Source: a virus (Duplodnaviria; Heunggongvirae; Uroviricota; Caudoviricetes). Taken from it: a stretch of 15,576 bases of DNA. The stretch lies in IMG/VR virus record IMGVR_UViG_2802429234_000006; one strand, given 5' to 3'. The first letter of the stretch is position 1. Every line of letters starts with the position of its first letter. Positions 1 to 14,208 of the stretch are shown here, piece after piece. The position numbers and the translations under genes are program-made. Below the pieces are notes generated by a model. It was not told the DNA's origin and ran no database searches. It saw only the letters and a program-made list of their open reading frames with translations.

Positions 1-1371
1 TTACCAATTAAAAATATAATCTTTTATTTTAAGATACATATCAACTTTCCCAGACCATTTTGATGCACTCTCTTTCATATTTTCAATAACATCATCAATC
101 AGTAAGTCTCTTCCTTTTACAATCAATTGATCATCATCAATACCCTCTGGTGCAAATTCATATATGTGCATGCTTAGATTAGACTTCTGAGTATGAGGGA
201 ATGAATCTTTTTCCACACACATACCAATAAACTCATTAATAGATAGTTCTTTCTGTTTACACATCATAAGTAATAATTCGAACTCATCAATTGTTATATA
301 GTAAATTCTTTTTAGATCAATGGGGATACTATGATATTTTTCAGATAACTCAGTTGATAGATCAGGGTTAATTAAATCCTGCACAACCATTGCATTTGAT
401 ATATGATGATCCCGATGCACCACAATTAACATTGAATCTTTCGAAGATGGTTTTCTCATCTCTATTTTATTTAAATTAAAAGCACATTCCTGACCTTGAT
501 AAATCCCTTTAATAAAACTCTTATTCAACCTTTCCTTTAGCAACTGAGCATTATTAGATGTTTTAACGAACTTTGCAGGCTCTATTGCCTTCGAGTCAAC
601 ATAAACTATTGAATCTCCTTCTGAAATAACAAAATCTACGGACTTGCAATTTTTTATTGCATTATCACTATAAATCTTCTTAACCTCCCTTTCAGTCTTA
701 AAGTTATAATTGTACTTATCAAGAAAGCGAGAAATATAAAGTTCCATCGTCTTACCAAATTTTTCTTTATAAGATTCCTTATAGACCTGCTTGAACAATT
801 CTGGAACTAGGTTGACAAACCCTGACTTCATGATTCTTTTGCATAATATCACTACACCATCGCCATCTAAAAACATTGGTTTACTGAGGAATGGTGTATC
901 TTCATAATACTCAGCGGTAATGTTTTTATCCAATTTATATGGGGCAATAAAATCTCTTACACCATCAATTTTTAAGCATGTTAATTCCAAAAATCTTTTC
1001 ACTTGTTCCGGACCAAATATCGGAACCAAGTTTATTATCAAGTGTTTAAATGGAATAACCTCTGATTCTACATCAGGATTAATACATGAAATAGCGGTAA
1101 AATAACATGCCATTTTGTAATAGCTTTCCAAATGTAAACCAGTACATTCTAAAAACTTATCTTTATAATATAATTCATCATTCAAGCAATACCAAATATA
1201 CTGTCTTGTTAATGAATTGGCATTAAATTTATCAGTTGATTGATAAAGCAACTGATTTATCACCATTCGTCTAAGGCTTAGCATAACTTTATCATCAACG
1301 ATTAAATTAGATGCTTCTAGTTGCAAGTTATAGATTAAGTTGATAATATCAATAAAATCATTTTTACTCAT
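1..1371 (-). CDS. Hypothetical protein, AT-rich cargo gene (456 aa from the ATG at 1371; the track ORF extends to 1434 only through non-ATG codons). Possible PD-(D/E)xK-like nuclease signature.
   Basis: Long uninterrupted ORF in a markedly AT-rich block. The ATG at 1369-1371 overlaps the TGA stop of the upstream small ORF (ATGA), suggesting translational coupling. No strong SD precedes any candidate ATG. The motif DFVISEGD-SIVYVDSK is encoded at about 589..636. No Walker A motif seen. Confidence 0.6.
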   Translation of the reverse strand: MSKNDFIDIINLIYNLQLEASNLIVDDKVMLSLRRMVINQLLYQSTDKFNANSLTRQYIWYCLNDELYYKDKFLECTGLHLESYYKMACYFTAISCINPDVESEVIPFKHLIINLVPIFGPEQVKRFLELTCLKIDGVRDFIAPYKLDKNITAEYYEDTPFLSKPMFLDGDGVVILCKRIMKSGFVNLVPELFKQVYKESYKEKFGKTMELYISRFLDKYNYNFKTEREVKKIYSDNAIKNCKSVDFVISEGDSIVYVDSKAIEPAKFVKTSNNAQLLKERLNKSFIKGIYQGQECAFNLNKIEMRKPSSKDSMLIVVHRDHHISNAMVVQDLINPDLSTELSEKYHSIPIDLKRIYYITIDEFELLLMMCKQKELSINEFIGMCVEKDSFPHTQKSNLSMHIYEFAPEGIDDDQLIVKGRDLLIDDVIENMKESASKWSGKVDMYLKIKDYIFNW

Positions 1372-1598
1372 TTCTTTTGCAGGCTTTTTTCCTTCATGCA
1401 AAACTTCCATTTCATTGCCAGATAGCAACACCAAGGGAAATTGGAAACAATACCCACCTCGACATCCCTTACTTTTTGGAAGTGTTCATAAAAATTTCTC
1501 AAAAAAGAAACATCACTAAAATATGACAATCTTTTCTTAATCGCATCAACTTTTATAGAATATGACATTGGTGTCATTGTTTTTATTGCCACGCTCAT
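1368..1598 (-). CDS. Small hypothetical protein (76 aa), first gene of a putative two-gene operon
   Basis: ATG at 1598 preceded by AAAAGG about 5 nt upstream. Its stop overlaps the ATG of the large downstream ORF. AT-rich promoter-like DNA lies upstream (1599-1680). Confidence 0.4.
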   Translation of the reverse strand: MSVAIKTMTPMSYSIKVDAIKKRLSYFSDVSFLRNFYEHFQKVRDVEVGIVSNFPWCCYLAMKWKFCMKEKSLQKK

Positions 1599-5420: not shown

Positions 5421-5804
5421 TCAGGAACCCAGATGCAATTGAATATTCATCTGCTCAGCAACGTAGTAGATTTCTTCAGAAAGCATCAACAAAAAACCAA
5501 GAGAATCCCATCCTCTGTTACTGACTACAATTGTTCTTTTTTGGTAATTCCTGAATGCCTTACCATTGGGCTGATGTAATCCCATCCCGGCATGTGCCCG
5601 GCTGATGGTTTCGCGCATCTCCCCGAAATTATCCTGCCTTGCCGGTAGGCGTGCTGCCTTGCGTATACATTCCGCGCGACGTTTTGCCGCCTGTTCCCGT
5701 GCTTTGTCATCATTCGCCAGCATGATGACCTCAGCCCATCGCTCCGCCGCTCTCCGGTACAGGCCACGCGCTTCCAGTGCTTCCGCTTTACTGTCGCGTA
5801 TCAT
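5421..5804 (-). CDS. PerC-family-like transcriptional regulator (127 aa)
   Basis: ATG at 5804 with AAGGAGG 10 nt upstream and an ATGA overlap with the preceding ORF. N-terminal KAEALEARGLYRRAAERWAEV resembles the conserved N-terminal motif of PerC/Pch-type activators as I recall it; not confirmed by search. Confidence 0.5.
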   Translation of the reverse strand: MIRDSKAEALEARGLYRRAAERWAEVIMLANDDKAREQAAKRRAECIRKAARLPARQDNFGEMRETISRAHAGMGLHQPNGKAFRNYQKRTIVVSNRGWDSLGFLLMLSEEIYYVAEQMNIQLHLGS

Positions 5805-6049
5805 GCGCTTTTTCCCTCCTTCATGGCCTTACGCTGGCGCTTGTGCTTCTCATTCAGCGCCATCAGCCGCGTTTCTGCGTCCTGTTGTTCCTGTGGTGTC
5901 ACCTCGCCGCATGGCTGGCCTTTCAGGTCGTAACGCACTCCACCAGCAACCAGAGCGCGGTAATAGCGCGGAGACTGCGCATAAGATGCCAGCGTCGCAC
6001 GTAATGCCCTTAGCCCGAATGCCAGCCCCCTGACGGCGATATCCTGCAT
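5801..6049 (-). CDS. Hypothetical small protein (about 82 aa from the ATG at 6049; the track extends to a GTG at 6160)
   Basis: Stop overlaps the PerC-like start (ATGA). GC-rich region with overlapping alternative frames, so the start is uncertain. Confidence 0.35.
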   Translation of the reverse strand: MQDIAVRGLAFGLRALRATLASYAQSPRYYRALVAGGVRYDLKGQPCGEVTPQEQQDAETRLMALNEKHKRQRKAMKEGKSA

Positions 6050-6117
6050 CAGGTCGTCGAATATCCCCCACCTTAAGCGGCTTCGGTGCTTCCCGGCTGA
6101 ATAATTCAGGCCACAAC

Positions 6118-6342
6118 TCAGTGGCGGTTTTTGCGCTGCCGTTTGGTCATATGCCGCCACGGTGTCGCCCCTGTGGGCTTCTGCTGCACTTTCTGGTTAC
6201 CGGGCATCACTTTATGCGCCGATGTGGTTTTATCCTGCTCCTGTGCCGACTGCGTCGTTTTCTGCGTCGTGCCGAAAATGCCTTTTGGCTTTCTGTTAAT
6301 GGTCAGCTTTGTCATGCTCTTCCCCATCATTGTTGCCGTCAT
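6118..6342 (-). CDS. Hypothetical small basic protein (74 aa)
   Basis: Hydrophilic, Lys/Arg/Thr/Gln-rich ORF just downstream of the putative origin. No clear SD at the first ATG; an internal ATG has GGGAAGAG upstream. Competing plus-strand frames are Cys-rich and look non-coding. Confidence 0.25.
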   Translation of the reverse strand: MTATMMGKSMTKLTINRKPKGIFGTTQKTTQSAQEQDKTTSAHKVMPGNQKVQQKPTGATPWRHMTKRQRKNRH

Positions 6343-6801: not shown

Positions 6802-8934
6802 TTATTCGTCTTCAGCCAGGTCAATCAGCACGATAAATCGCTGCTGTGTTCCGTTAATCTTCACCGTTTTCGATGTCCAGCGACCGGGTTCTGCACAAAC
6901 CAGCACTCCGGCTTCCTCCAGCGCCTGGCACCCAAAGTTTCTGGATATGCCGCATAAAATTTCTCCATCAAACACTGACGGAATAATGTGATATTCGGGT
7001 TTTCCATCTTCCCGCTTACCGCTGACAAGATACCCTGCAAGGTTATTTATACGGGATGCATAGTGGTTATCCATATCTCCATTGCTTTTCCCGTAGGTAT
7101 AAGGCTGAAAACGGCTCAGGGCATGGCGCTGAATAAAATCACGGGCGCGGCTGATGACCTGGTATTTTTCCCGGTTTTCCAGCCCGAAATCCTGTAACCA
7201 GTCATCAAAAGCCCGTTGCGTTGCTGCCCGACATTCTTTTGCTGTCCAGCCAGTAATTGCGGTGGCAAGTTCTCCGGCCGCATCCAGCATGGCAAAGCGT
7301 GAAGCCACACGTCTGACCTGTGACGATGCATTTTCAGGCAGATTTCCCAGCCAGGTATTTTCTTTATCGGAAGTGGTGTTAATAGCCAGTTCCTTATGAG
7401 CGGATAACCAGCGCACCCACTCACGCCCCGCAGCTCCACAATAATTTGATGAAAGTCGCTTTATTGCTCTGGCATGTTGATCACCATCGTCATACCCGTT
7501 AAAAACCGTTGTATCGGTAAAGGGAACGCTTAGCAGCCGCACCAGTTGCCCGGCTTTTGGGGTGATCCCCCCTTTTAACAGGAAGGTCTCAAAATCTTCT
7601 TCCCCTGTGCTTAGTGCCGCTATTTTCCAGCGCATTACTGCACGATTGCCGCCATCTTTTCGTCCCTGAATTCTCCCCACACCGTTAAACAGGCTGTAGG
7701 CGGATTGCGCGATGTCATTAATCCTTCCTCCCTGACCAATTTCATCAATGGGGATAAAGCCATCATTACGTGCGGCAGCTTCCACCGTCAGTCCGTGCCG
7801 GGTGGCATCCCACGAAAGTTTGAGCATTTCAGGATCGCCATAAAGACTGGTGGCAGCTTCCACTGTCGTGGTTTTCCCTGCTGACGACTGCGCGAAAAGG
7901 TGGATACCAAAACAACTTCCGCCCACAAGAGAATTAAGGGGTGCTGCCAGTCCGACCAGTACCCCAAGCATCATTGAGTGATTACCTCGCATCAGGGAGG
8001 CGACATTATTCCTCCATTCCTGTACCGTCCCCCTGACGATATAGCCTTTGATGGCTGCAGATCCGCCACAGAATGCCACTGGACGATCCGGTACACCAAT
8101 CACCTCACCATCTGGCATAACATAGGCTCCACAATGCCATCCGGCTGTTGATGTGACCTCCCACACAGTACGATCTCCCTGACGTTGCAGGTATTCCGCC
8201 AGTTTATTCAGTAAATGGGCGCTGGTGGTGATTGCAACACCCCGTCCACGTAACCTCGCCCATCCTGCTGGCATACCGATTTCATTGCGCGGCATCGCTT
8301 CGTAAATAATTTTCTGTGTTCCTTCCGGGATCATTTCAATTATCAGATACGCTTCCCGACCATCATTACCAATACCCGCTGTGCGCATCCTGTCACTCAA
8401 CCAGGTTTCCTTATGATTCAGCTCCTCTGCTCTGGTATTGGGTATTGGCTCGACATACCAGAGCGCACCATCTTTTTCGGTGATATGCGGTTTCATGGGA
8501 TCTGTTCTTCCGGGCAATCCACCCGCTCTCCTGACTTCCTCCGTCATGGTTTCCCCGCGCTCTGCCTGTTCGCGGATCCGTTGCAGGTAGTCGCGCCAGT
8601 TCTCAGGCTCCCGGTCGGGGATACCTTTGTATAATTTCGCCTCCTGTACGCCAGCCAGCGCCAGTTTTTCGGCGACAGCGTTAATCAGGATTGGCTCAAT
8701 CTCCCCCGCGATATAAACACGCGCAAAGCGGCGCTCATCGTCGACAATGCGGATATTCGCAAGCTCTGCAAGTTGCTTTGGCCCCAGGTAAACAGGCGGC
8801 ACGCTATCGCCATGTTTTCGTCCTTCGCTTTCAATCCAGTGTTGAGCATGGGCGTAAGCGTCCGTCCCGGCAAAAATGATTACCTCAGTGAATTTATCCT
8901 TCGGCTGATATTTTAAATTCGGTGCGTTTTTCAC
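6802..8934 (-). CDS. Replication protein, primase-helicase-like (710 aa): P-loop NTPase core with a possible Toprim-like N-terminus
   Basis: Walker A-like AQSSAGKTT and Walker B-like FIPIDEIG read from the translation. GTG start at 8934 with GGGAGG 6-7 nt upstream, overlapping the stop of the preceding ORF (GTGA). An iteron array lies immediately downstream. Resemblance to DUF927 / phage-plasmid primase families is from recollection. Confidence 0.8.
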   Translation of the reverse strand: MKNAPNLKYQPKDKFTEVIIFAGTDAYAHAQHWIESEGRKHGDSVPPVYLGPKQLAELANIRIVDDERRFARVYIAGEIEPILINAVAEKLALAGVQEAKLYKGIPDREPENWRDYLQRIREQAERGETMTEEVRRAGGLPGRTDPMKPHITEKDGALWYVEPIPNTRAEELNHKETWLSDRMRTAGIGNDGREAYLIIEMIPEGTQKIIYEAMPRNEIGMPAGWARLRGRGVAITTSAHLLNKLAEYLQRQGDRTVWEVTSTAGWHCGAYVMPDGEVIGVPDRPVAFCGGSAAIKGYIVRGTVQEWRNNVASLMRGNHSMMLGVLVGLAAPLNSLVGGSCFGIHLFAQSSAGKTTTVEAATSLYGDPEMLKLSWDATRHGLTVEAAARNDGFIPIDEIGQGGRINDIAQSAYSLFNGVGRIQGRKDGGNRAVMRWKIAALSTGEEDFETFLLKGGITPKAGQLVRLLSVPFTDTTVFNGYDDGDQHARAIKRLSSNYCGAAGREWVRWLSAHKELAINTTSDKENTWLGNLPENASSQVRRVASRFAMLDAAGELATAITGWTAKECRAATQRAFDDWLQDFGLENREKYQVISRARDFIQRHALSRFQPYTYGKSNGDMDNHYASRINNLAGYLVSGKREDGKPEYHIIPSVFDGEILCGISRNFGCQALEEAGVLVCAEPGRWTSKTVKINGTQQRFIVLIDLAEDE

Positions 8935-9221
8935 TTCTTACCTCCCGCAACCAACATTGCCCGGATTTTTTTAATATTCGTGGCTGCACGTCTCGCCACC
9001 GCCTGTTGTTTGTTTTCCACCAGAATAAAATCACGCTCAAACTGACGGCGCGGCATTACGCAGTCATATTCGTAAGCCTCACGGCGGTAGGTGATATTGC
9101 CTGGCGTAACGTGACGAATAACCACTCGTCCACCACGTCTGGTGTCGCGGTAAATATCTCCGTGTCTGATTTCAGGCCGAGAGAGACCGCTGGCAGTAAA
9201 GCCAGAATTTTTCTTTTTCAT
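8931..9221 (-). CDS. Hypothetical basic protein (96 aa), translationally coupled to the replication protein
   Basis: ATG at 9221 with AGGA about 10 nt upstream; stop overlaps the replication gene start by 4 nt. Confidence 0.5.
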   Translation of the reverse strand: MKKKNSGFTASGLSRPEIRHGDIYRDTRRGGRVVIRHVTPGNITYRREAYEYDCVMPRRQFERDFILVENKQQAVARRAATNIKKIRAMLVAGGKK

Positions 9222-9225
9222 GGTT

Positions 9226-9426
9226 TTATTTTCCTGTCAGCAGTTCCGGTTTTATTCCTGCACGAATACAGAGTTCAGAAAAGCCTTCTACCGTACTTAC
9301 AATTTCATTATTTCGCAGCCGGCATTGTGATTTCACGTTCCCTTTATCCAGGTAAACCAGTACGCGTCCGGTGAAATCCTCTGGCACATTCAGGGTAATT
9401 GTCATTGTTGCTGGCTTATTACCCAT
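9226..9426 (-). CDS. Small protein (66 aa) carrying one copy of a DFTGxxLVxxxxGxV domain
   Basis: ATG at 9426 with AGGGGGTG upstream; overlaps the stop of the preceding ORF by 8 nt. Shares the motif with both halves of the 121-aa neighbour. Confidence 0.5.
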   Translation of the reverse strand: MGNKPATMTITLNVPEDFTGRVLVYLDKGNVKSQCRLRNNEIVSTVEGFSELCIRAGIKPELLTGK

Positions 9427-9784
9427 GATTCACCCCCTGAATGACCTGATAACCGCAACTGGTCAGCAATTCGATAAATTCCGGCAGTGTGCCGAAACAG
9501 CAATCATCACGCAGACATTCGCGGGATACCTCGACGCCGTTTTCGTAGTGACTCACCATGCGTCCGGTAAAATGCAGATCATCATCGTGATGGCTCGTTA
9601 ACGGCTTAATCAGTCGCGCACGTTCTGCCAGTTCCAGCAATGCTTCAACGCTTCCGGCAATTGCACCATCCGGCAGGTTGTAATTACGCACTATGCGCCC
9701 GTTCTCCACATGGACCAGTAGCTGCCCGGTAAATTTCTCGTCAAACTGAATGCTGTTAAGGTCAGCAATTGACAGGTTATGCAT
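9419..9784 (-). CDS. Hypothetical protein (121 aa from the ATG at 9784) containing two tandem copies of the same DFTG-motif domain
   Basis: Internal duplication FTGQLLVHVENGRIV / FTGRMVSHYENGVEV. The ATG overlaps the upstream stop within ATGCATAA (8-nt overlap). The track start at 9814 is a TTG. Confidence 0.5.
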   Translation of the reverse strand: MHNLSIADLNSIQFDEKFTGQLLVHVENGRIVRNYNLPDGAIAGSVEALLELAERARLIKPLTSHHDDDLHFTGRMVSHYENGVEVSRECLRDDCCFGTLPEFIELLTSCGYQVIQGVNHG

Positions 9785-9980
9785 GGCGCATCCCCTGACG
9801 AATACGGGTGGCAAATACCATCACGCAGCCATCAGGAGATTGCTGGCGTGCTTCCTGTTCGCTGGTAGCCTCGATGTGAATTACGCGCTGTTGTGCTGTG
9901 CTCAGGGCGATAAAACGCCAGATGTATTTATTCAGGTTGTGCGAGTCCCGCCCTTGCGGGTGTGTGGTATGATTTCTCAT
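9777..9980 (-). CDS. Small hypothetical protein (67 aa), first gene of the operon leading to the replication gene; possibly Icd-like
   Basis: ATG at 9980 with GAGG 6 nt upstream. It is the C-terminal part of a 286-aa track ORF whose upstream portion runs through a divergent promoter region and the opposite-strand small gene, so only this segment is taken as coding. The Icd-like label is a weak recollection. Confidence 0.45.
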   Translation of the reverse strand: MRNHTTHPQGRDSHNLNKYIWRFIALSTAQQRVIHIEATSEQEARQQSPDGCVMVFATRIRQGMRHA

Positions 9981-10077
9981 AGCTACCTCGATACTGTTGC
10001 TATCGTTGGTGGTTAGAAGCCCGGTTAGTGTTCGCGCACTGCCGGGTTTCGTCGTTTCTGCACCTTGCATCAACAAG

Positions 10078-10129
10078 GTGTTTAACACCAATTTAAACCT
10101 AGGTGTTAAACACGTCAAGTGTTGAACAC
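10078..10129. promoter_or_regulatory. Three operator-like palindromes GTGTT-N-AACAC in a divergent promoter region
   Basis: GTGTTTAACAC (10078-10088), GTGTTAAACAC (10103-10113) and GTGTTGAACAC (10119-10129). A possible sigma70 promoter for the plus-strand gene (TTGAAC at 10122-10127, 17-bp spacer, CATACT at 10145-10150) overlaps the third site. Confidence 0.5.
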
Positions 10130-10179
10130 TTGTTTTTTTTCCTGCATACTGCATTTGTTTTTTGTGAGGGGGACACAAC

Positions 10180-10359
10180 ATGGCGACAAAAGCAGTAAAC
10201 GCAAAATCACAAACAGTTGCGGCAAGGGTTCCGCATGAAGTTATGAACAATGTTGAGGCAGTAAAAATGCCTGGTGAAAGTACAGGGCAGTTTGTAACAG
10301 CAGCATTAAAGCGAGAAGTTGAGTACCGCCAGCGCCGCAAGGCCAAAGAACAGGAGTAG
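10180..10359 (+). CDS. Small ribbon-helix-helix-like DNA-binding protein (59 aa); the only plus-strand gene of the element in this window
   Basis: ATG at 10180 with GAGGGGG 8-14 nt upstream; hand translation MATKAVNAKSQTVAARVPHEVMNNVEAVKMPGESTGQFVTAALKREVEYRQRRKAKEQE to TAG at 10357-10359. The RVPxEV...S...FV..AL pattern is typical of Arc/CopG-type RHH proteins. Not in the ORF track (under 60 aa). Confidence 0.5.
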   Translation: MATKAVNAKSQTVAARVPHEVMNNVEAVKMPGESTGQFVTAALKREVEYRQRRKAKEQE

Positions 10360-10583
10360 TTGATCAACACCGGGCGCCCAGAAAAAATCGTATCAGTCGC
10401 GCCACCAGCAAAATTTTTTGCTTTCCGGACGATGTGGCCAACGACATTTTGCAGCAAAATATTCTGCATTTCTGGCGTGCTGTAGTAACGGTGATCAGCG
10501 CCTTCACTCTGTGCGACCACAACGCTATAATCTGCCTCGTAGACAGTAAGCAATATGGTGCTACAGGTAATTCGTTCACAAAG

Positions 10584-10614
10584 GCGCTCCGGCAACGGGG
10601 CGCTTTCTCTTTTT
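10584..10614 (+). terminator. Intrinsic terminator: 8-bp stem with GCAA tetraloop followed by TTTCTCTTTTT
   Basis: GCGCTCCG (10584-10591), loop GCAA, CGGGGCGC (10596-10603, one G-U pair), then a T-rich run. Sits between the convergent RHH gene (+) and the antirepressor gene (-). Confidence 0.5.
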
Positions 10615-10629
10615 GTAACGGTCAGAGCG

Positions 10630-11478
10630 TTACACATGGCTGTTTTCCTCCATGCGACGGGCTAACCAACGCTGCGAAAGGCGAATTAATTCAGCTTTCC
10701 GCTGGTGGTAGTCCTGGCCTAACTCAATCAGCGTGATATTGCTCTGCTCAAGGTAAGAAAGGTGCTCAAGCTGCAACGTGCTCATGTGGTCGCGTGGTTC
10801 GCCTGTGATGCCGTTCGCCAGTGCCCACTGTTTTGCAGTCATGCCACCCAGCACGATACGCGCCAGCATATTGGCTTCCGTGGTGTAATGGTGCTGTAGA
10901 GTGTTTTTACCCAGTTCAGCCCGGTACGCCTCCAGCGCGGCACACATTGGCTTAAAGTAGCTGGCAACTGTGATACGGGCTTTCAGTTCCCGGCGTAACG
11001 CTGCGGAACGTACAGGCGCAACCTTGTGTAGCTCTTCCTCGCATTTGATGAAGTACTGACGAACGGCGCGCCCCTGTTCGGTGCGTTCGACCATCGCCAG
11101 TTCTTTCGCCATGTTCGTGGAGATCAAATAGTCTTCACTGCGGCGATCACCGCCGCGCTTTGTTGTCCAATCAGAATCAAACTGTTCAATATTTACACTT
11201 TGGTTCCCCCGTTTCGGGGAATCAAAGTACAAATTTTCTACAACTTCAAAATCCACGCCATTTTTAAATCCGTACTCATCAATACGTCCTTTAATCCAGG
11301 TAGTGAAATCACGGCCTACCCCGAGCGCCTTATGCAACGCTCTGGCGCTAACAATATTGGTTTCACGCCCGCCAATAACGCCGGAAATAACCGGGATAAT
11401 TTCACCAAAATTTTGCAGATTCTGGTTTTCAGGTCGAATGAAGCCCTGCCCCTGTACGGGCGTTTTTCGCAGTTTCAT
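10630..11478 (-). CDS. Phage antirepressor-like protein (282 aa; AntA/Rha/KilA-type regulatory domains)
   Basis: ATG at 11478 with GGAG 7 nt upstream. Segments ARALHKALGVGRDFTTWIKGRI and ISTNMAKELAMVERTEQGRAVRQYFIKCEEEL resemble conserved blocks of phage antirepressor / Rha-family proteins as I recall them. Confidence 0.65.
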   Translation of the reverse strand: MKLRKTPVQGQGFIRPENQNLQNFGEIIPVISGVIGGRETNIVSARALHKALGVGRDFTTWIKGRIDEYGFKNGVDFEVVENLYFDSPKRGNQSVNIEQFDSDWTTKRGGDRRSEDYLISTNMAKELAMVERTEQGRAVRQYFIKCEEELHKVAPVRSAALRRELKARITVASYFKPMCAALEAYRAELGKNTLQHHYTTEANMLARIVLGGMTAKQWALANGITGEPRDHMSTLQLEHLSYLEQSNITLIELGQDYHQRKAELIRLSQRWLARRMEENSHV

Positions 11479-11555
11479 AAAAACTCCGCTATCGAATTAA
11501 GTTACTTTTTATTTGCTGGTGGATAGCTGGGGCGCCTGGCCCCGTTGCCATTTAA

Positions 11556-11753
11556 TCAGGTAGCTGTTCCGCGTGATTCCGCAATACGCTGATTAATCCA
11601 CTCGTCAATTTCACTCTCAACGAAAGCAATCGCTCGCGAGCCAATTTTTACAGGTTTAGGAAAACGCCCTTGGGCAATGAGTTTATAGATCCATGCCCTG
11701 CCATAGCCTGTACGGCGCATGGTTTCTGGCATACGAATTAAAGATTGTGACAT
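11556..11753 (-). CDS. alpA: AlpA-family transcriptional regulator / excisionase-like HTH protein (65 aa)
   Basis: ATG at 11753 with GGGAG upstream (the track start at 11822 is a GTG and runs through the operators). Sequence MSQSLIRMPETMRRTGYGRAWIYKLIAQGRFPKPVKIGSRAIAFVESEIDEWI is characteristic of AlpA/Xis-type proteins. Confidence 0.8.
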   Translation of the reverse strand: MSQSLIRMPETMRRTGYGRAWIYKLIAQGRFPKPVKIGSRAIAFVESEIDEWINQRIAESRGTAT

Positions 11754-11760
11754 GATAATC

Positions 11761-11793
11761 GTCTCCCGTTGTTTATTGATGCCTACGGGAGAC
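11761..11793 (-). promoter_or_regulatory. Leader hairpin (8-bp inverted repeat GTCTCCCG / CGGGAGAC with a 17-nt loop) that includes the alpA Shine-Dalgarno sequence
   Basis: Inverted repeat at 11761-11768 and 11786-11793. On the minus-strand mRNA the downstream arm contains GGGAG, the SD of alpA. Confidence 0.35.
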
Positions 11794-11820
11794 ATTGAAG
11801 CAGGTAAGACATTGGATATC

Positions 11821-11855
11821 ACCGCAATTGCGGTGAATGATACCGCAATTGCGGT
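11821..11855. promoter_or_regulatory. Tandem pair of perfect 14-bp palindromes ACCGCAATTGCGGT (operator-like), centres 21 bp apart
   Basis: Identical copies at 11821-11834 and 11842-11855, each perfectly self-complementary, in the interval between the 251-aa gene stop and the alpA start. Confidence 0.5.
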
Positions 11856-12623: not shown

Positions 12624-12751
12624 TCTGTGCTACCTCGCACCCTCTGTAAAAGTGGCTGTGCCAGCCCGCAGAGGTGTACGGGTTTTCAGGAGCGACCCTA
12701 GACACAGCCTTTTCTTAATCGCTCAAAGTCTACTACTGTATACTCAACCAG

Positions 12752-13966
12752 TCACCCGCATTTTCCGAACTCACCATGCACCACATTTCCGCCATGCTCG
12801 AGCGAATCCATATAGTCGGCATACCACTGGAGCATCTCCCGGCGACCATCCAGATATTGCGCATGGTTGTATGTGCCACGAATTGAGTTTTTATCGACGT
12901 GTGCAAGCTGTGTCTCTATCCACGCGGTGTTATAGCCCTGCTCATGCAAAATGGTGCTCATGGTGTGCCGGAATCCATGACCAGTAACCTTTCCGTTATA
13001 GCCGATGCGTTTAAATACTTGGTTTATGCTAGCCTCGCTCATTGTTTTCCTTGGATCATTACGGCCGGGAAACATAAGCGGATAATTGCCAGTTAATTCT
13101 TTAATCTGCCCAATAAGAGAAAGAGCCTGCTTAGACAAAGGCACCACATGAGGGCGACGCATTTTCATCCGTGAAGCAGGTATCTCCCAGATAGCCTTGT
13201 TGAGATCGATTTCATCCCATAATGCACCGCGCAGTTCGCCAGTCCGCAAACCGGTGATAATCAGTAGACGAGCCGCCATAACAACCAATGCACTTCCTGA
13301 GTAACTGGACAATGCCTTGAAAAAATCAGGTAATTCTTTGGCTGTGAGGAAAGGATAATGATTAGATTCATGACCTTGCATCGCGCTGGTGAGATCCGGT
13401 GCAGGGTTATACTCAGCACGTCCAGTGACAATTGCATAGCGGAAAACTTCCCCGCATCGCTGCCTCACTTTTTTGGCTTTTTCGGTAGCACCGCGCCCCT
13501 CGATACGCCGCAGCACATTCAGCAGTTCAAGTGGTTTGATTTCGGCGATTGGTTTTTTGCCAATGTAAGGGAACACATCTTTGTTGAAGGCTTCGAGGAT
13601 GTCTGAAGCATAACCAGCAGACCATTTTTTTAATTTGCTGCTGTGCCACTCAATGGCAATATCTTTGAAGGTGTTGTTTAACTGCGTTTCCCGGGCAATC
13701 TTTTCCTCTCGTTTCGCTTCCATCGGATCGATACCCCCAGCGATACTCCTTTTAGCTTCTTCACGTTTTGCACGAGCATCAGCCAAGGTAACTTCAGGAT
13801 ACACACCTAGTGCTAACAGCTTCTCTTTACCAGCTACACGATACTTGAAGCGCCAATATTTTCCTCCACTAGGTTTTACCAAGAGATACAGACCACCACC
13901 ATCAGCCAGCTTGTAAGCCTTCTCTTTTGGCTTGGCAGTGTCTATTTGACGGGCATTGAGTTTCAC
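12752..13966 (-). CDS. int: Tyrosine site-specific integrase, P4 / CP4-57 IntA family (404 aa)
   Basis: N-terminal pattern AKPKEKAYKLADGGGLYLLVKPSGGKYWRFKY and C-terminal catalytic region HGFRHT...RGTYNHAQY typical of P4-type integrases. GTG start at 13966 with GGAGG 9 nt upstream. Lies next to and co-oriented with a tRNA gene. Confidence 0.9.
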   Translation of the reverse strand: MKLNARQIDTAKPKEKAYKLADGGGLYLLVKPSGGKYWRFKYRVAGKEKLLALGVYPEVTLADARAKREEAKRSIAGGIDPMEAKREEKIARETQLNNTFKDIAIEWHSSKLKKWSAGYASDILEAFNKDVFPYIGKKPIAEIKPLELLNVLRRIEGRGATEKAKKVRQRCGEVFRYAIVTGRAEYNPAPDLTSAMQGHESNHYPFLTAKELPDFFKALSSYSGSALVVMAARLLIITGLRTGELRGALWDEIDLNKAIWEIPASRMKMRRPHVVPLSKQALSLIGQIKELTGNYPLMFPGRNDPRKTMSEASINQVFKRIGYNGKVTGHGFRHTMSTILHEQGYNTAWIETQLAHVDKNSIRGTYNHAQYLDGRREMLQWYADYMDSLEHGGNVVHGEFGKCG

Positions 13967-14132: not shown

Positions 14133-14208
14133 TGGTGCCGATAATAGGAGTCGAACCTACGACCTTCGCATTACGAATGCGCTGCTCTACCAACTGAGCT
14201 ATATCGGC
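14133..14208 (-). tRNA. thrW: tRNA-Thr (anticodon CGU), thrW-type; integration target of the element
   Basis: Minus-strand sequence GCCGATATAGCTCAGTTGGTAGAGCAGCGCATTCGTAATGCGAAGGTCGTAGGTTCGACTCCTATTATCGGCACCA folds as a canonical cloverleaf: 7-bp acceptor stem, D-arm GCTC/GAGC, anticodon loop TTCGTAA, T-loop TTCGACT, encoded CCA. Confidence 0.92.

Follow-up and report, generated by a model that had tools for sequence, protein, structure and literature searches.

The window analysed here, the 15,576-nucleotide Caudoviricetes record IMGVR_UViG_2802429234_000006 (all coordinates refer to this whole stretch), is, as judged by gene content and flanking sequence, a phage satellite of the Gram-negative phage-inducible chromosomal island (PICI) type, integrated at tRNA-Thr beside proA. 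Its replication genes lie in a leftward operon on the minus strand that starts at position 9980 with a short Icd-like gene and extends to a primase gene, whereas a small gene for a 59-amino acid protein (10180–10359) runs away from it on the plus strand. This report concerns the control region between the two, in which three short palindromes, a pair of divergent candidate promoters and a structured segment resembling the antisense RNA SymR were recognized.

The three palindromes are exact matches to GTGTTNAACAC (GTGTT-N-AACAC), located at 10078–10088, 10103–10113 and 10119–10129. An earlier reading of the same DNA, made from the letters alone (hereafter the sequence-only reading), had reported three such sites in the divergent region, and no others turned up in the 15.6 kb of the window when one mismatch was tolerated. 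Shuffled windows averaged 0.52 such matches, with three reached in 2 of 200 shuffles. A two-mismatch scan of the window returned only scattered extra sites at chance level, none of them at another promoter. The first copy (O1, GTGTTTAACAC, 10078–10088) abuts the −10 element of the predicted leftward promoter, P_left, and covers its predicted +1 (~10083). The second (O2, GTGTTAAACAC, 10103–10113) fills the P_left spacer directly beside the −35 element, and the third (O3′, GTGTTGAACAC, 10119–10129) abuts the upstream side of the leftward −35 and contains the rightward −35 TTGAAC. The switch had been placed at 10017–10179; the right part of this interval does hold the operators, but 10017–10060 contains none and corresponds to the terminator hairpin of the plus-strand small RNA discussed below.

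A promoter scan placed P_left on the minus strand at 10090–10118 (−35 TTGACG, 10118–10113; 17-bp spacer; −10 TAAATT, 10095–10090), and TTGACG with a TAnnnT hexamer at 17 bp is conserved in relatives. From its sequence and position, P_left is the predicted promoter driving the operon from the icd-like gene to the primase gene. A candidate rightward promoter, P_right, was read from the sequence on the plus strand at 10122–10150 (−35 TTGAAC, 10122–10127; 17 bp; −10 CATACT, 10145–10150), and relatives carry a conserved TATACT at the position of this −10. The third palindrome does overlap the −35 of the 59-amino acid gene, as had been suggested, but in the window the promoter matches consensus at only 8 of 12 positions, under the cut-off of the scanner. 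The same palindrome and its flanks form a hairpin followed by T8 on the plus strand (10116–10140); this too had been pointed out, but a function as terminator is unsupported. Relatives without O3′ at this position have no hairpin and keep the T-rich tract and, as the hairpin is present only where the O3′ copy is present, it is probably incidental despite its terminator-like look.

The plus-strand gene is preceded by a Shine–Dalgarno (SD) sequence, GAGGGGG (10166–10172), and its product belongs to the YlcI/YnfO family (NF041551, 59.7 bits against a cut-off of 30, with residues 9–50 aligned to model positions 1–42 of 42). This family is small, with 81 representatives (50% clustering) among 1.84 billion proteins; 74 homologues were found, in Enterobacterales, and no function for the family was found in the literature searched. 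Alignment of the homologues revealed an invariant N-terminal arm (MAT..N.KS), R16, H19, a G-E-S turn and Q37–F38, with residues 11–15 variable. In an AlphaFold2 monomer model, residues 19–28 and 35–58 form helices and residues 1–18 are loose, and the succession of helix, G-x-S/T turn and helix resembles the core of solved ribbon-helix-helix (RHH) proteins. Using hhalign, residues 9–21 were placed on the strand of Arc with a probability of only 5%; in this alignment T12, A14 and R16 stand opposite the base-contacting Q9, N11 and R13, and RWPREV of Arc corresponds to RVPHEV of the window protein. No Pfam family matched the window protein at E ≤ 0.01, and searches of 32 family members against Pfam at E ≤ 1 gave chance-level matches only. 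Nor was there a sequence match for the window protein among PDB chains, where the family profile likewise gave only chance-level hits. Structure and motif are thus the basis on which the 59-amino acid protein is predicted to be an RHH protein. The sequence-only reading had called it Arc/CopG-like; the gene and the predicted fold stand, but no sequence profile of a curated RHH family matches the protein.

For comparison, related loci were collected in a one-genome-per-species scan, which yielded 31, and further loci came from exact-protein look-ups and E. coli records, giving ~33 related loci in a dozen or so genera (cited below by L numbers). Essentially every locus carries an 11-mer of the form GTG-N5-CAC (or CTG-N5-CAG) in two or three copies at fixed positions, with starts at −77, at −98 to −103 and at −32 (or −61 in the window class) relative to the ATG of the RHH gene. 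With few exceptions the O2 copy begins at −77, and a conserved ACGTCAA follows it; the O1 homologue, at −98 to −103 in nearly all relatives, always has the core of its own locus. The O3′ position is occupied only in the TT.AA class (the window, L001, L002, L004 and L044; degenerate in L003), whereas the third copy of the other classes lies at −32, immediately past the rightward −10.

The central bases of the 11-mer are identical within a locus and different between loci, and they follow residues 11–16 of the RHH protein. Proteins with QT[VLI]AAR are found with GTGTT.AACAC, those with QSLKSR or QALKAR with GTGTGGCCCAC, those with [KR]KLEAR with GTGTCAGCCAC and those with QK[LV]Q[AT]R with GTGGACTCCAC; further pairs are KRFDVR with GTGTCGGACAC, QKMSAR with CTGGCACCCAG, QKIQAR with CTGGATTCCAG, QMTTVR with GTGAAATACAC and KQISIR with CTGAATCACAG. 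The mean operator distance was 2.25 where residues 12 and 14 were the same and 4.39 where they differed, a gap reached in 0 of 10000 permutations (uncorrected for phylogeny). That residues 12 and 14 vary together with the operator core is compatible with a reading strand at these positions. Operators were also predicted blind from the strand residues, before the DNA was inspected, for P0044 of E. coli, P0056 and P0059, and all three predictions were correct.

The pattern of shared DNA was informative in the same direction. The Edwardsiella hoshinae locus has DNA in common with the window only over 9912–10353 (91% identity). The module is also present in the model Gram-negative PICI EcCICFT073, where the protein has QALKAR and GTGTGGCCCAC occurs twice; what this island has in common with the window is the icd/small-RNA segment and the final 33 bases of the RHH gene, but not 10068–10325, which comprises the operators and the DNA-binding two-thirds of the gene. 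On the evidence of these alignments, elements exchange the operators as one cassette with the part of the gene that encodes the DNA-binding portion of the protein. The palindromes were assigned to the RHH protein because of the co-variation of core and β-strand, the correct blind predictions and the cassette exchange, which together support their role as operators of the 59-amino acid protein. It is very improbable that they are instead bound by another protein (AlpA, a helper-phage repressor or a host factor) and that the plus-strand gene is unrelated; AlpA-family proteins do bind DNA and one is encoded nearby, but the operator core tracks RHH residues 12 and 14, predictions from the RHH sequence were right, and the recombination boundaries enclose the operators together with the RHH reading head. 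AlpA was rejected as the operator binder, its similarity not following operator class: L004 has window-type operators with an AlpA only 27% identical, whereas the AlpA proteins of L007 and L022 are 69–75% identical and their operators different.

Operators in the P_left spacer and at its −10/+1 edge argue for repression rather than activation, and a third copy behind the conserved plus-strand −10 TATACT in most relatives argues for autoregulation. The best reading of the operator positions would be repression of the leftward operon combined with autoregulation. The sequence-only reading had already proposed that the RHH protein represses the replication operon and autoregulates, and this gained comparative support, with O2 in the P_left spacer, O1 at the −10 edge and +1, and the third copy on the plus-strand −35. 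Where a KilA-N protein is the first leftward gene product, the operator–promoter unit stands directly before its gene, without the long leader; in the P0059 locus a Phage_ASH gene lies behind a more degenerate operator–promoter unit, with an O2-like copy inside the called coding region. These two arrangements indicate that the repressor unit is a module. A narrower role was considered, in which the RHH protein represses P_left and itself only as CopG-type damping or copy control, or as an addiction-type autoregulator, with AlpA-activated transcription from the right responsible for induction. We consider this unlikely, given that the operators cover the only recognizable promoter before the replication operon, that no toxin partner lies behind the RHH gene in the window, and that joint exchange of operators and reading head is expected of an immunity determinant.

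The first leftward gene (9777–9980, minus strand) encodes a 67-amino acid protein of the Icd-like cell-division inhibitor type (NF033153, 64.4 bits against a cut-off of 25). Its start at 9980, as given by the sequence-only reading, was borne out by an ATG with the SD sequence GAGG at 9989–9986, and a homologous short Icd-like gene with its own SD is present in 26 related loci, starting 168–216 nt from the plus-strand ATG. In E. coli relatives the Prokaryotic Genome Annotation Pipeline (PGAP) annotates a 134-amino acid form with a start equivalent to 10181. NF033153 covers residues 86–129 of this form, equivalent to 19–62 of the 67-amino acid form, and so falls in the C-terminal 48 residues only; because of this C-terminal match and the conserved short start with its SD, the longer form is probably over-extended. 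RefSeq is inconsistent on this point, with an Icd-like protein of 134 amino acids over the whole control region in some genomes and of 66–68 in others (L001 6295–6699; L044 2057–2584). The rest of the leftward operon (6802–9814, minus strand) consists of a 131-amino acid open reading frame (ORF), a 66-amino acid ORF, a DUF4222 gene (8931–9221) and the DUF927 primase gene. The genes overlap or abut, and an equivalent annotation exists in E. coli 94EC and CFT073.

The segment complementary to the 5′ untranslated region of the icd-like gene, including its SD, was not remarked on in the sequence-only reading. We read 9981–10060 on the plus strand as a SymR-like cis-antisense RNA of ~80 nt, of the antitoxin type and guarding the icd-like gene, with its transcription predicted from the sequence; its parts would be hairpin 1 (~9980–10015), a terminator hairpin (10016–10050) and then a U-rich tail. 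The Rfam SymR family (RF01809) matched full-length at 9981–10053 with 32.7 bits, and at the same place and strand in 6 of 13 relatives with 28–45.6 bits, no locus reaching the gathering score of 61 bits. A model built from island sequences alone finds K-12 SymR at 1336–1419 of L046 (annotated 1336–1412) with E = 2.7e-5. The segment has the architecture of SymR: it lies antisense in cis to the start of its target, ribosome-binding site included, with a candidate promoter in the target ORF and two predicted hairpins, one of them a terminator. The candidate promoter element is an extended −10, TGgTATGAT (9965–9973, plus strand), inside the first icd-like codons, with +1 predicted at 9981. In K-12 symR, TAGAAT is followed after 7 nt by A(+1)GTCAT; relatives of the window have TAGACT, 7 nt and then AGCCAT, and the window has TGgTATGAT, 7 nt and then A at 9981.

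Folding of the plus strand gave two hairpins and the U-rich tail at −37.2 kcal/mol (z = −5.9). Across 23–26 loci, 96.5% of cells pair and compensatory changes occur in 16 of 25 pairs; 0 of 500 shuffles reached this level, and slid controls were not close. All 45 wobble pairs are G·U on the plus strand and would be A·C on the minus strand, and the plus-strand fold is the stabler one in 26 of 26 loci (mean −32.4 versus −21.0 kcal/mol); on both grounds the plus strand was taken to be the RNA strand. The loop of hairpin 1 reads CUCC in most relatives, the complement of the icd-like SD, and the window is a variant with CCUC in the hairpin-1 stem. We assign a low probability to the alternative that the hairpins at 9980–10050 act in the leader of the leftward mRNA, by SD sequestration or as a processed C4/CI-type RNA, without a separate antisense RNA. 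The hairpin-1 core is Watson–Crick on both strands and would put the SD in an mRNA loop, and the immunity RNAs of P1 and P4 do come from the strand of their targets, but the wobble pairs and fold stabilities favour the plus strand, the second hairpin has a U-rich tail behind it on that strand only, and the −10 element lies at a symR-like distance. Moreover, the C4 and isrK Rfam RNAs have no match in the window (E ≤ 1) or in 9900–10700 (E ≤ 10), and a C4/isrK immunity RNA, expected from the P1/P4 analogy, was ruled out on this basis.

A second feature passed over in the sequence-only reading is a minus-strand frame without stop codons that crosses the RHH gene in antisense direction, continues across the entire control region and is in phase with the icd-like gene. 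In the window it forms a 286-amino acid ORF (9777–10637); the ATG of this ORF, at 10637, is preceded by a GGAGG SD and lies over the ant stop codon. Within the RHH gene, the minus-strand frame whose third codon positions coincide with those of the gene is free of stops in 26 of 26 loci, against 0–6 stops in the other two frames, and it is stop-free in the ~190-nt control region in 19 of 26. A spacing of 1 modulo 3 makes this frame continuous with icd-like, giving ORFs of 179–443 codons that start beside the ant or alpA stop codon; such long ORFs occur in the window, L001, L004, L018, L022, L029 and L041–L043, and EcCICFT073 has one of 433 codons. The frame is broken by a stop just upstream of the icd ATG in Edwardsiella (L002), and in all about one-third of the loci have it broken or out of phase with icd. 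In the EcCICFT073 locus the frame begins with a Bro-N/AntA-like remnant, annotated as a pseudogene by PGAP in a relative. One genome has a BRO-N pseudogene annotated antisense to the RHH gene.

In 33 distinct RHH genes, T (which would create an antisense stop) was found at 0 of 114 four-fold sites before CAx or TAx, compared with 234 of 816 four-fold sites in other contexts (Fisher p = 6e-16). Codon-pair bias was ruled out as the cause of the missing antisense stops, as T precedes CAx in 26% of cases in the remaining window genes, which have 3.6 such stops per 100 codons. These counts, the open frame from 10637 to 9777 with its GGAGG SD and the PGAP call from the equivalent of 10181 would all suit an interpretation of the interval as coding sequence of a long Icd-like protein (the 134-amino acid PGAP form or the 286-amino acid ORF), with incidental palindromes. 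Such an interpretation is nevertheless extremely improbable. The Icd-like model falls on the last 48 residues, the short start with SD and ATG is kept in 26 loci, and the frame is interrupted or out of phase in the loci mentioned above. The extension contains no Pfam domain, every PHROG match is confined to the Icd-like C terminus or the stretch immediately upstream of it, and 10360–10629, the one testable segment, shows neither codon periodicity nor an excess of synonymous substitutions. Translation of the frame would in any case leave the operator, promoter and RNA evidence standing. The codon-usage score of the long antisense ORF is weakly positive; as an ordinary protein gene it is unsupported, having no Pfam domain, no codon constraint in that segment and a broken frame in about one-third of the loci.

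Beyond the RHH gene, a G+C-rich hairpin with a T-tract (10581–10616, plus strand; 24 nt past the ant stop codon) is the probable terminator of the RHH transcript, as judged by its form. The 46-nt core of this hairpin is 93.6% identical in EcCICFT073 and further E. coli records, with partial matches of 79–94%, and its translation in the open antisense frame is KSAPLPERLCE. A near-consensus promoter (TTCACT-17-TATAAT, 10/12, plus strand) lies ~50 nt upstream of the terminator, and the region 10503–10616 could produce a second RNA of ~78 nt or could simply be the terminator of the RHH transcript.

Taken together, these features make it likely that an RHH repressor switch and a SymR-like antisense layer jointly control the replication genes of the satellite. 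P_left would drive icd-like, several small genes and the primase, and P_right the 59-amino acid RHH protein. Bound to the three operators, the protein would exclude RNA polymerase from P_left and so keep replication silent, and over the P_right −35 it would limit its own synthesis. The variable residues 12 and 14 would read the variable central five bases of the operator, and the invariant R16 and N-terminal arm would presumably read the invariant GTG…CAC frame. The ~80-nt plus-strand RNA would start from the extended −10 inside the first icd-like codons and, being fully complementary to the icd-like leader and SD, would block icd-like translation. As the leftward operon is tightly packed, this block may also lower expression of the downstream replication genes by polarity. 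What the sequences show directly is the set of features, their conservation, the co-variation of protein and operator, and the co-variation within the RNA with its strand asymmetry; the DNA binding, the repression, the transcription of the RNA and a signal lifting repression are inferred.

Several observations weigh against this interpretation. The operator spacings, 25 and 16 bp centre to centre in the window and 22–26 bp in relatives, are out of helical phase; P_right is weak in the window; the SymR matches stay below the gathering score, and the permutation test on residues 12 and 14 carries no phylogenetic correction. Over-expression of AlpA alone induces EcCICFT073 (PMC6092414), so the RHH protein could not act as an absolute block. 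Finally, the antisense frame is open and protected from stops, so the region may also be translated.

A doubtful explanation of the last two points is that the antisense frame is kept open by selection for the travel of ribosomes with alpA/Bro-side transcripts, and not for its amino acid sequence. If this were true, AlpA-driven read-through on induction, shielded from Rho, would silence the repressor gene by convergent transcription. It would also bring translation into the icd-like and replication genes, bypassing the blocks imposed by the RHH protein and the antisense RNA, and would explain how AlpA alone induces EcCICFT073 despite an island-borne repressor.

The sequence-only reading had further proposed the adjacent antirepressor-like gene as a partner in the induction circuit, which the comparison did not bear out. 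Among the 31 loci, tblastn found a full Ant next to ylcI only in L001 and a 40-residue Ant fragment in L009; a few later-annotated enterobacterial loci also carry Ant beside the RHH gene. The AntA/AntB gene is part of a variable Bro zone, with alpA following directly in most loci, and AntA/AntB as a conserved partner was rejected on synteny. A scan of the window with up to two mismatches found no operator copy near the ant promoter. In the founding 2018 description of Gram-negative PICIs, the global repressor is called unclear and AlpA is the activator driving induction (PMC6092414). No paper assigning an RHH/YlcI repressor to Gram-negative PICIs was found in the literature searched, beyond which such work cannot be excluded, and no repressor was described there for EcCICFT073.

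The remainder of the window has the layout of a Gram-negative PICI, with integrase, AlpA, Bro/Ant zone and primase replication zone co-oriented and integration site-specific; all convincing island genes are on the minus strand. Gene calls and domain annotation identified the integrase (12752–13966), an AlpA-family regulator (11556–11822), the AntA/AntB protein (10630–11478) and the DUF927 primase (6802–8934), all on that strand, and tRNA-Thr(CGU) (14133–14208) flanks the integrase gene next to proA. EcCIMP1 sits between proA and yagU, the same integration site as that of the window (PMC11773190). The order of zones in PICIs is integration, Bro, replication and late, with which the window agrees (PMC10111431), and integrase, AlpA, primase, AntA/AntB, YlcI/YnfO and Icd are listed for Enterobacter PICIs and capsid-forming PICIs (cf-PICIs) (PMC13612085). 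Neither megablast of 9000–11500 nor tblastn of the RHH protein gave a match in 50,697 phage records.

Some further features of the island and its relatives were recorded. An int-alpA RNA (Rfam RF02996, 49.8 bits against a gathering threshold of 35.8) lies at 12640–12708 on the minus strand, between the integrase gene and a 251-amino acid gene, and this family also matches L022. Just downstream of the primase are genes for a ProQ/FinO-family protein (5801–6160, minus strand, 63.6 bits) and a PerC-family regulator (5421–5804, minus strand, 104 bits). As FinO-type chaperones act on structured antisense RNAs, the ProQ/FinO protein could partner the SymR-like RNA, which is offered as a lead only. 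An ORF of at least 477 amino acids runs off the left end of the window (1–1434, minus strand); Pfam offers no convincing match to it, and a role as accessory or defence cargo of the island is possible. The E. coli island L033 has two tandem copies of the module, with SymR-like RNA matches at 1301–1381 and 2049–2128 and 59-amino acid plus-strand genes at 1501–1680 and 2185–2364. In E. coli relatives, the RHH gene and ant are separated by ~660 additional bases (L001 6878–7594 versus 10360–10629 of the window). This extra DNA contains a plus-strand gene of 57–66 amino acids, in-frame with the RHH gene and 237 or 363 nt downstream of it, which the window does not have.

The closest system-level parallel is the immI region of P22, where the RHH repressors Mnt and Arc act at the divergent promoters Pmnt and Pant and the sar antisense RNA lies over a ribosome-binding site. 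Common to both are a small RHH repressor divergent from the repressed operon, operators overlapping promoters and a short cis-antisense RNA over the ribosome-binding site of a gene in that operon. In P22, however, the repressed gene is ant and there are two RHH proteins; the window has icd-like and replication genes in that place, a single RHH protein without a Pfam Arc match, three 11-bp GTG-N5-CAC operators and an antisense RNA of the SymR type. The immI region of P1 (c4, icd, ant) likewise has an Icd-type leader cistron and an antisense block expected to silence downstream genes, but C4 comes from the same transcript and acts in trans on two sites, the window has no C4/isrK match in Rfam, and its downstream genes are replication genes. 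In pMV158, replication genes are under an RHH repressor (CopG) and an antisense RNA (RNAII), as proposed here; CopG is co-transcribed with repB, whereas the RHH gene of the window is divergent and the element an integrated satellite. YlcI of K-12 (prophage DLP12) has the same R-F-P...G...F-S-x-W-V pattern as the window protein, and no repeated operator was found upstream of its gene.

At the RNA level the nearest relative is the E. coli type I toxin–antitoxin locus SymE–SymR (RF01809), in which the SymR promoter lies inside the symE ORF and SymR represses SymE synthesis (PMC1891008). Both RNAs have two hairpins, the same geometry of −10, +1 and start codon, and similar linkers (UUGUGAUUAG in SymR, UUGUGGUUAGA in the window), and the match holds in both directions, from Rfam to the islands and from the island model to K-12 SymR. 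They differ in the target, which is the AbrB-fold SymE in one and the Icd-like protein heading a replication operon in the other, and in the sense promoter, which carries a LexA box in one and RHH operators in the other. Stl/Rpr, the master repressors of Gram-positive PICIs, are likewise regulators divergent from the excision–replication operon of a satellite (PMC6092414), but the Stl repressors are large, have a helix-turn-helix and are relieved by proteins of the helper phage, and the candidate described here is a small RHH protein. With respect to known systems, the new elements are the YlcI/YnfO protein family, the operator form, the SymR-type RNA and the satellite replication cargo.

For the YlcI/YnfO family, hitherto uncharacterized, this analysis provides a first functional hypothesis. 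At least ten natural specificity classes pair two β-strand residues with five operator bases, and this series constitutes a data set for an RHH recognition code and for orthogonal repressor–operator pairs. Antisense control of the SymR type would be extended from a chromosomal toxin gene to the replication control of a satellite. Gram-negative PICIs are widespread, and the 1-kb region around the switch was matched in about a quarter of complete E. coli genomes (1378 of 5426); for these islands, EcCICFT073 included, the module offers a testable candidate repressor, predicted operators and a second, RNA layer of control.

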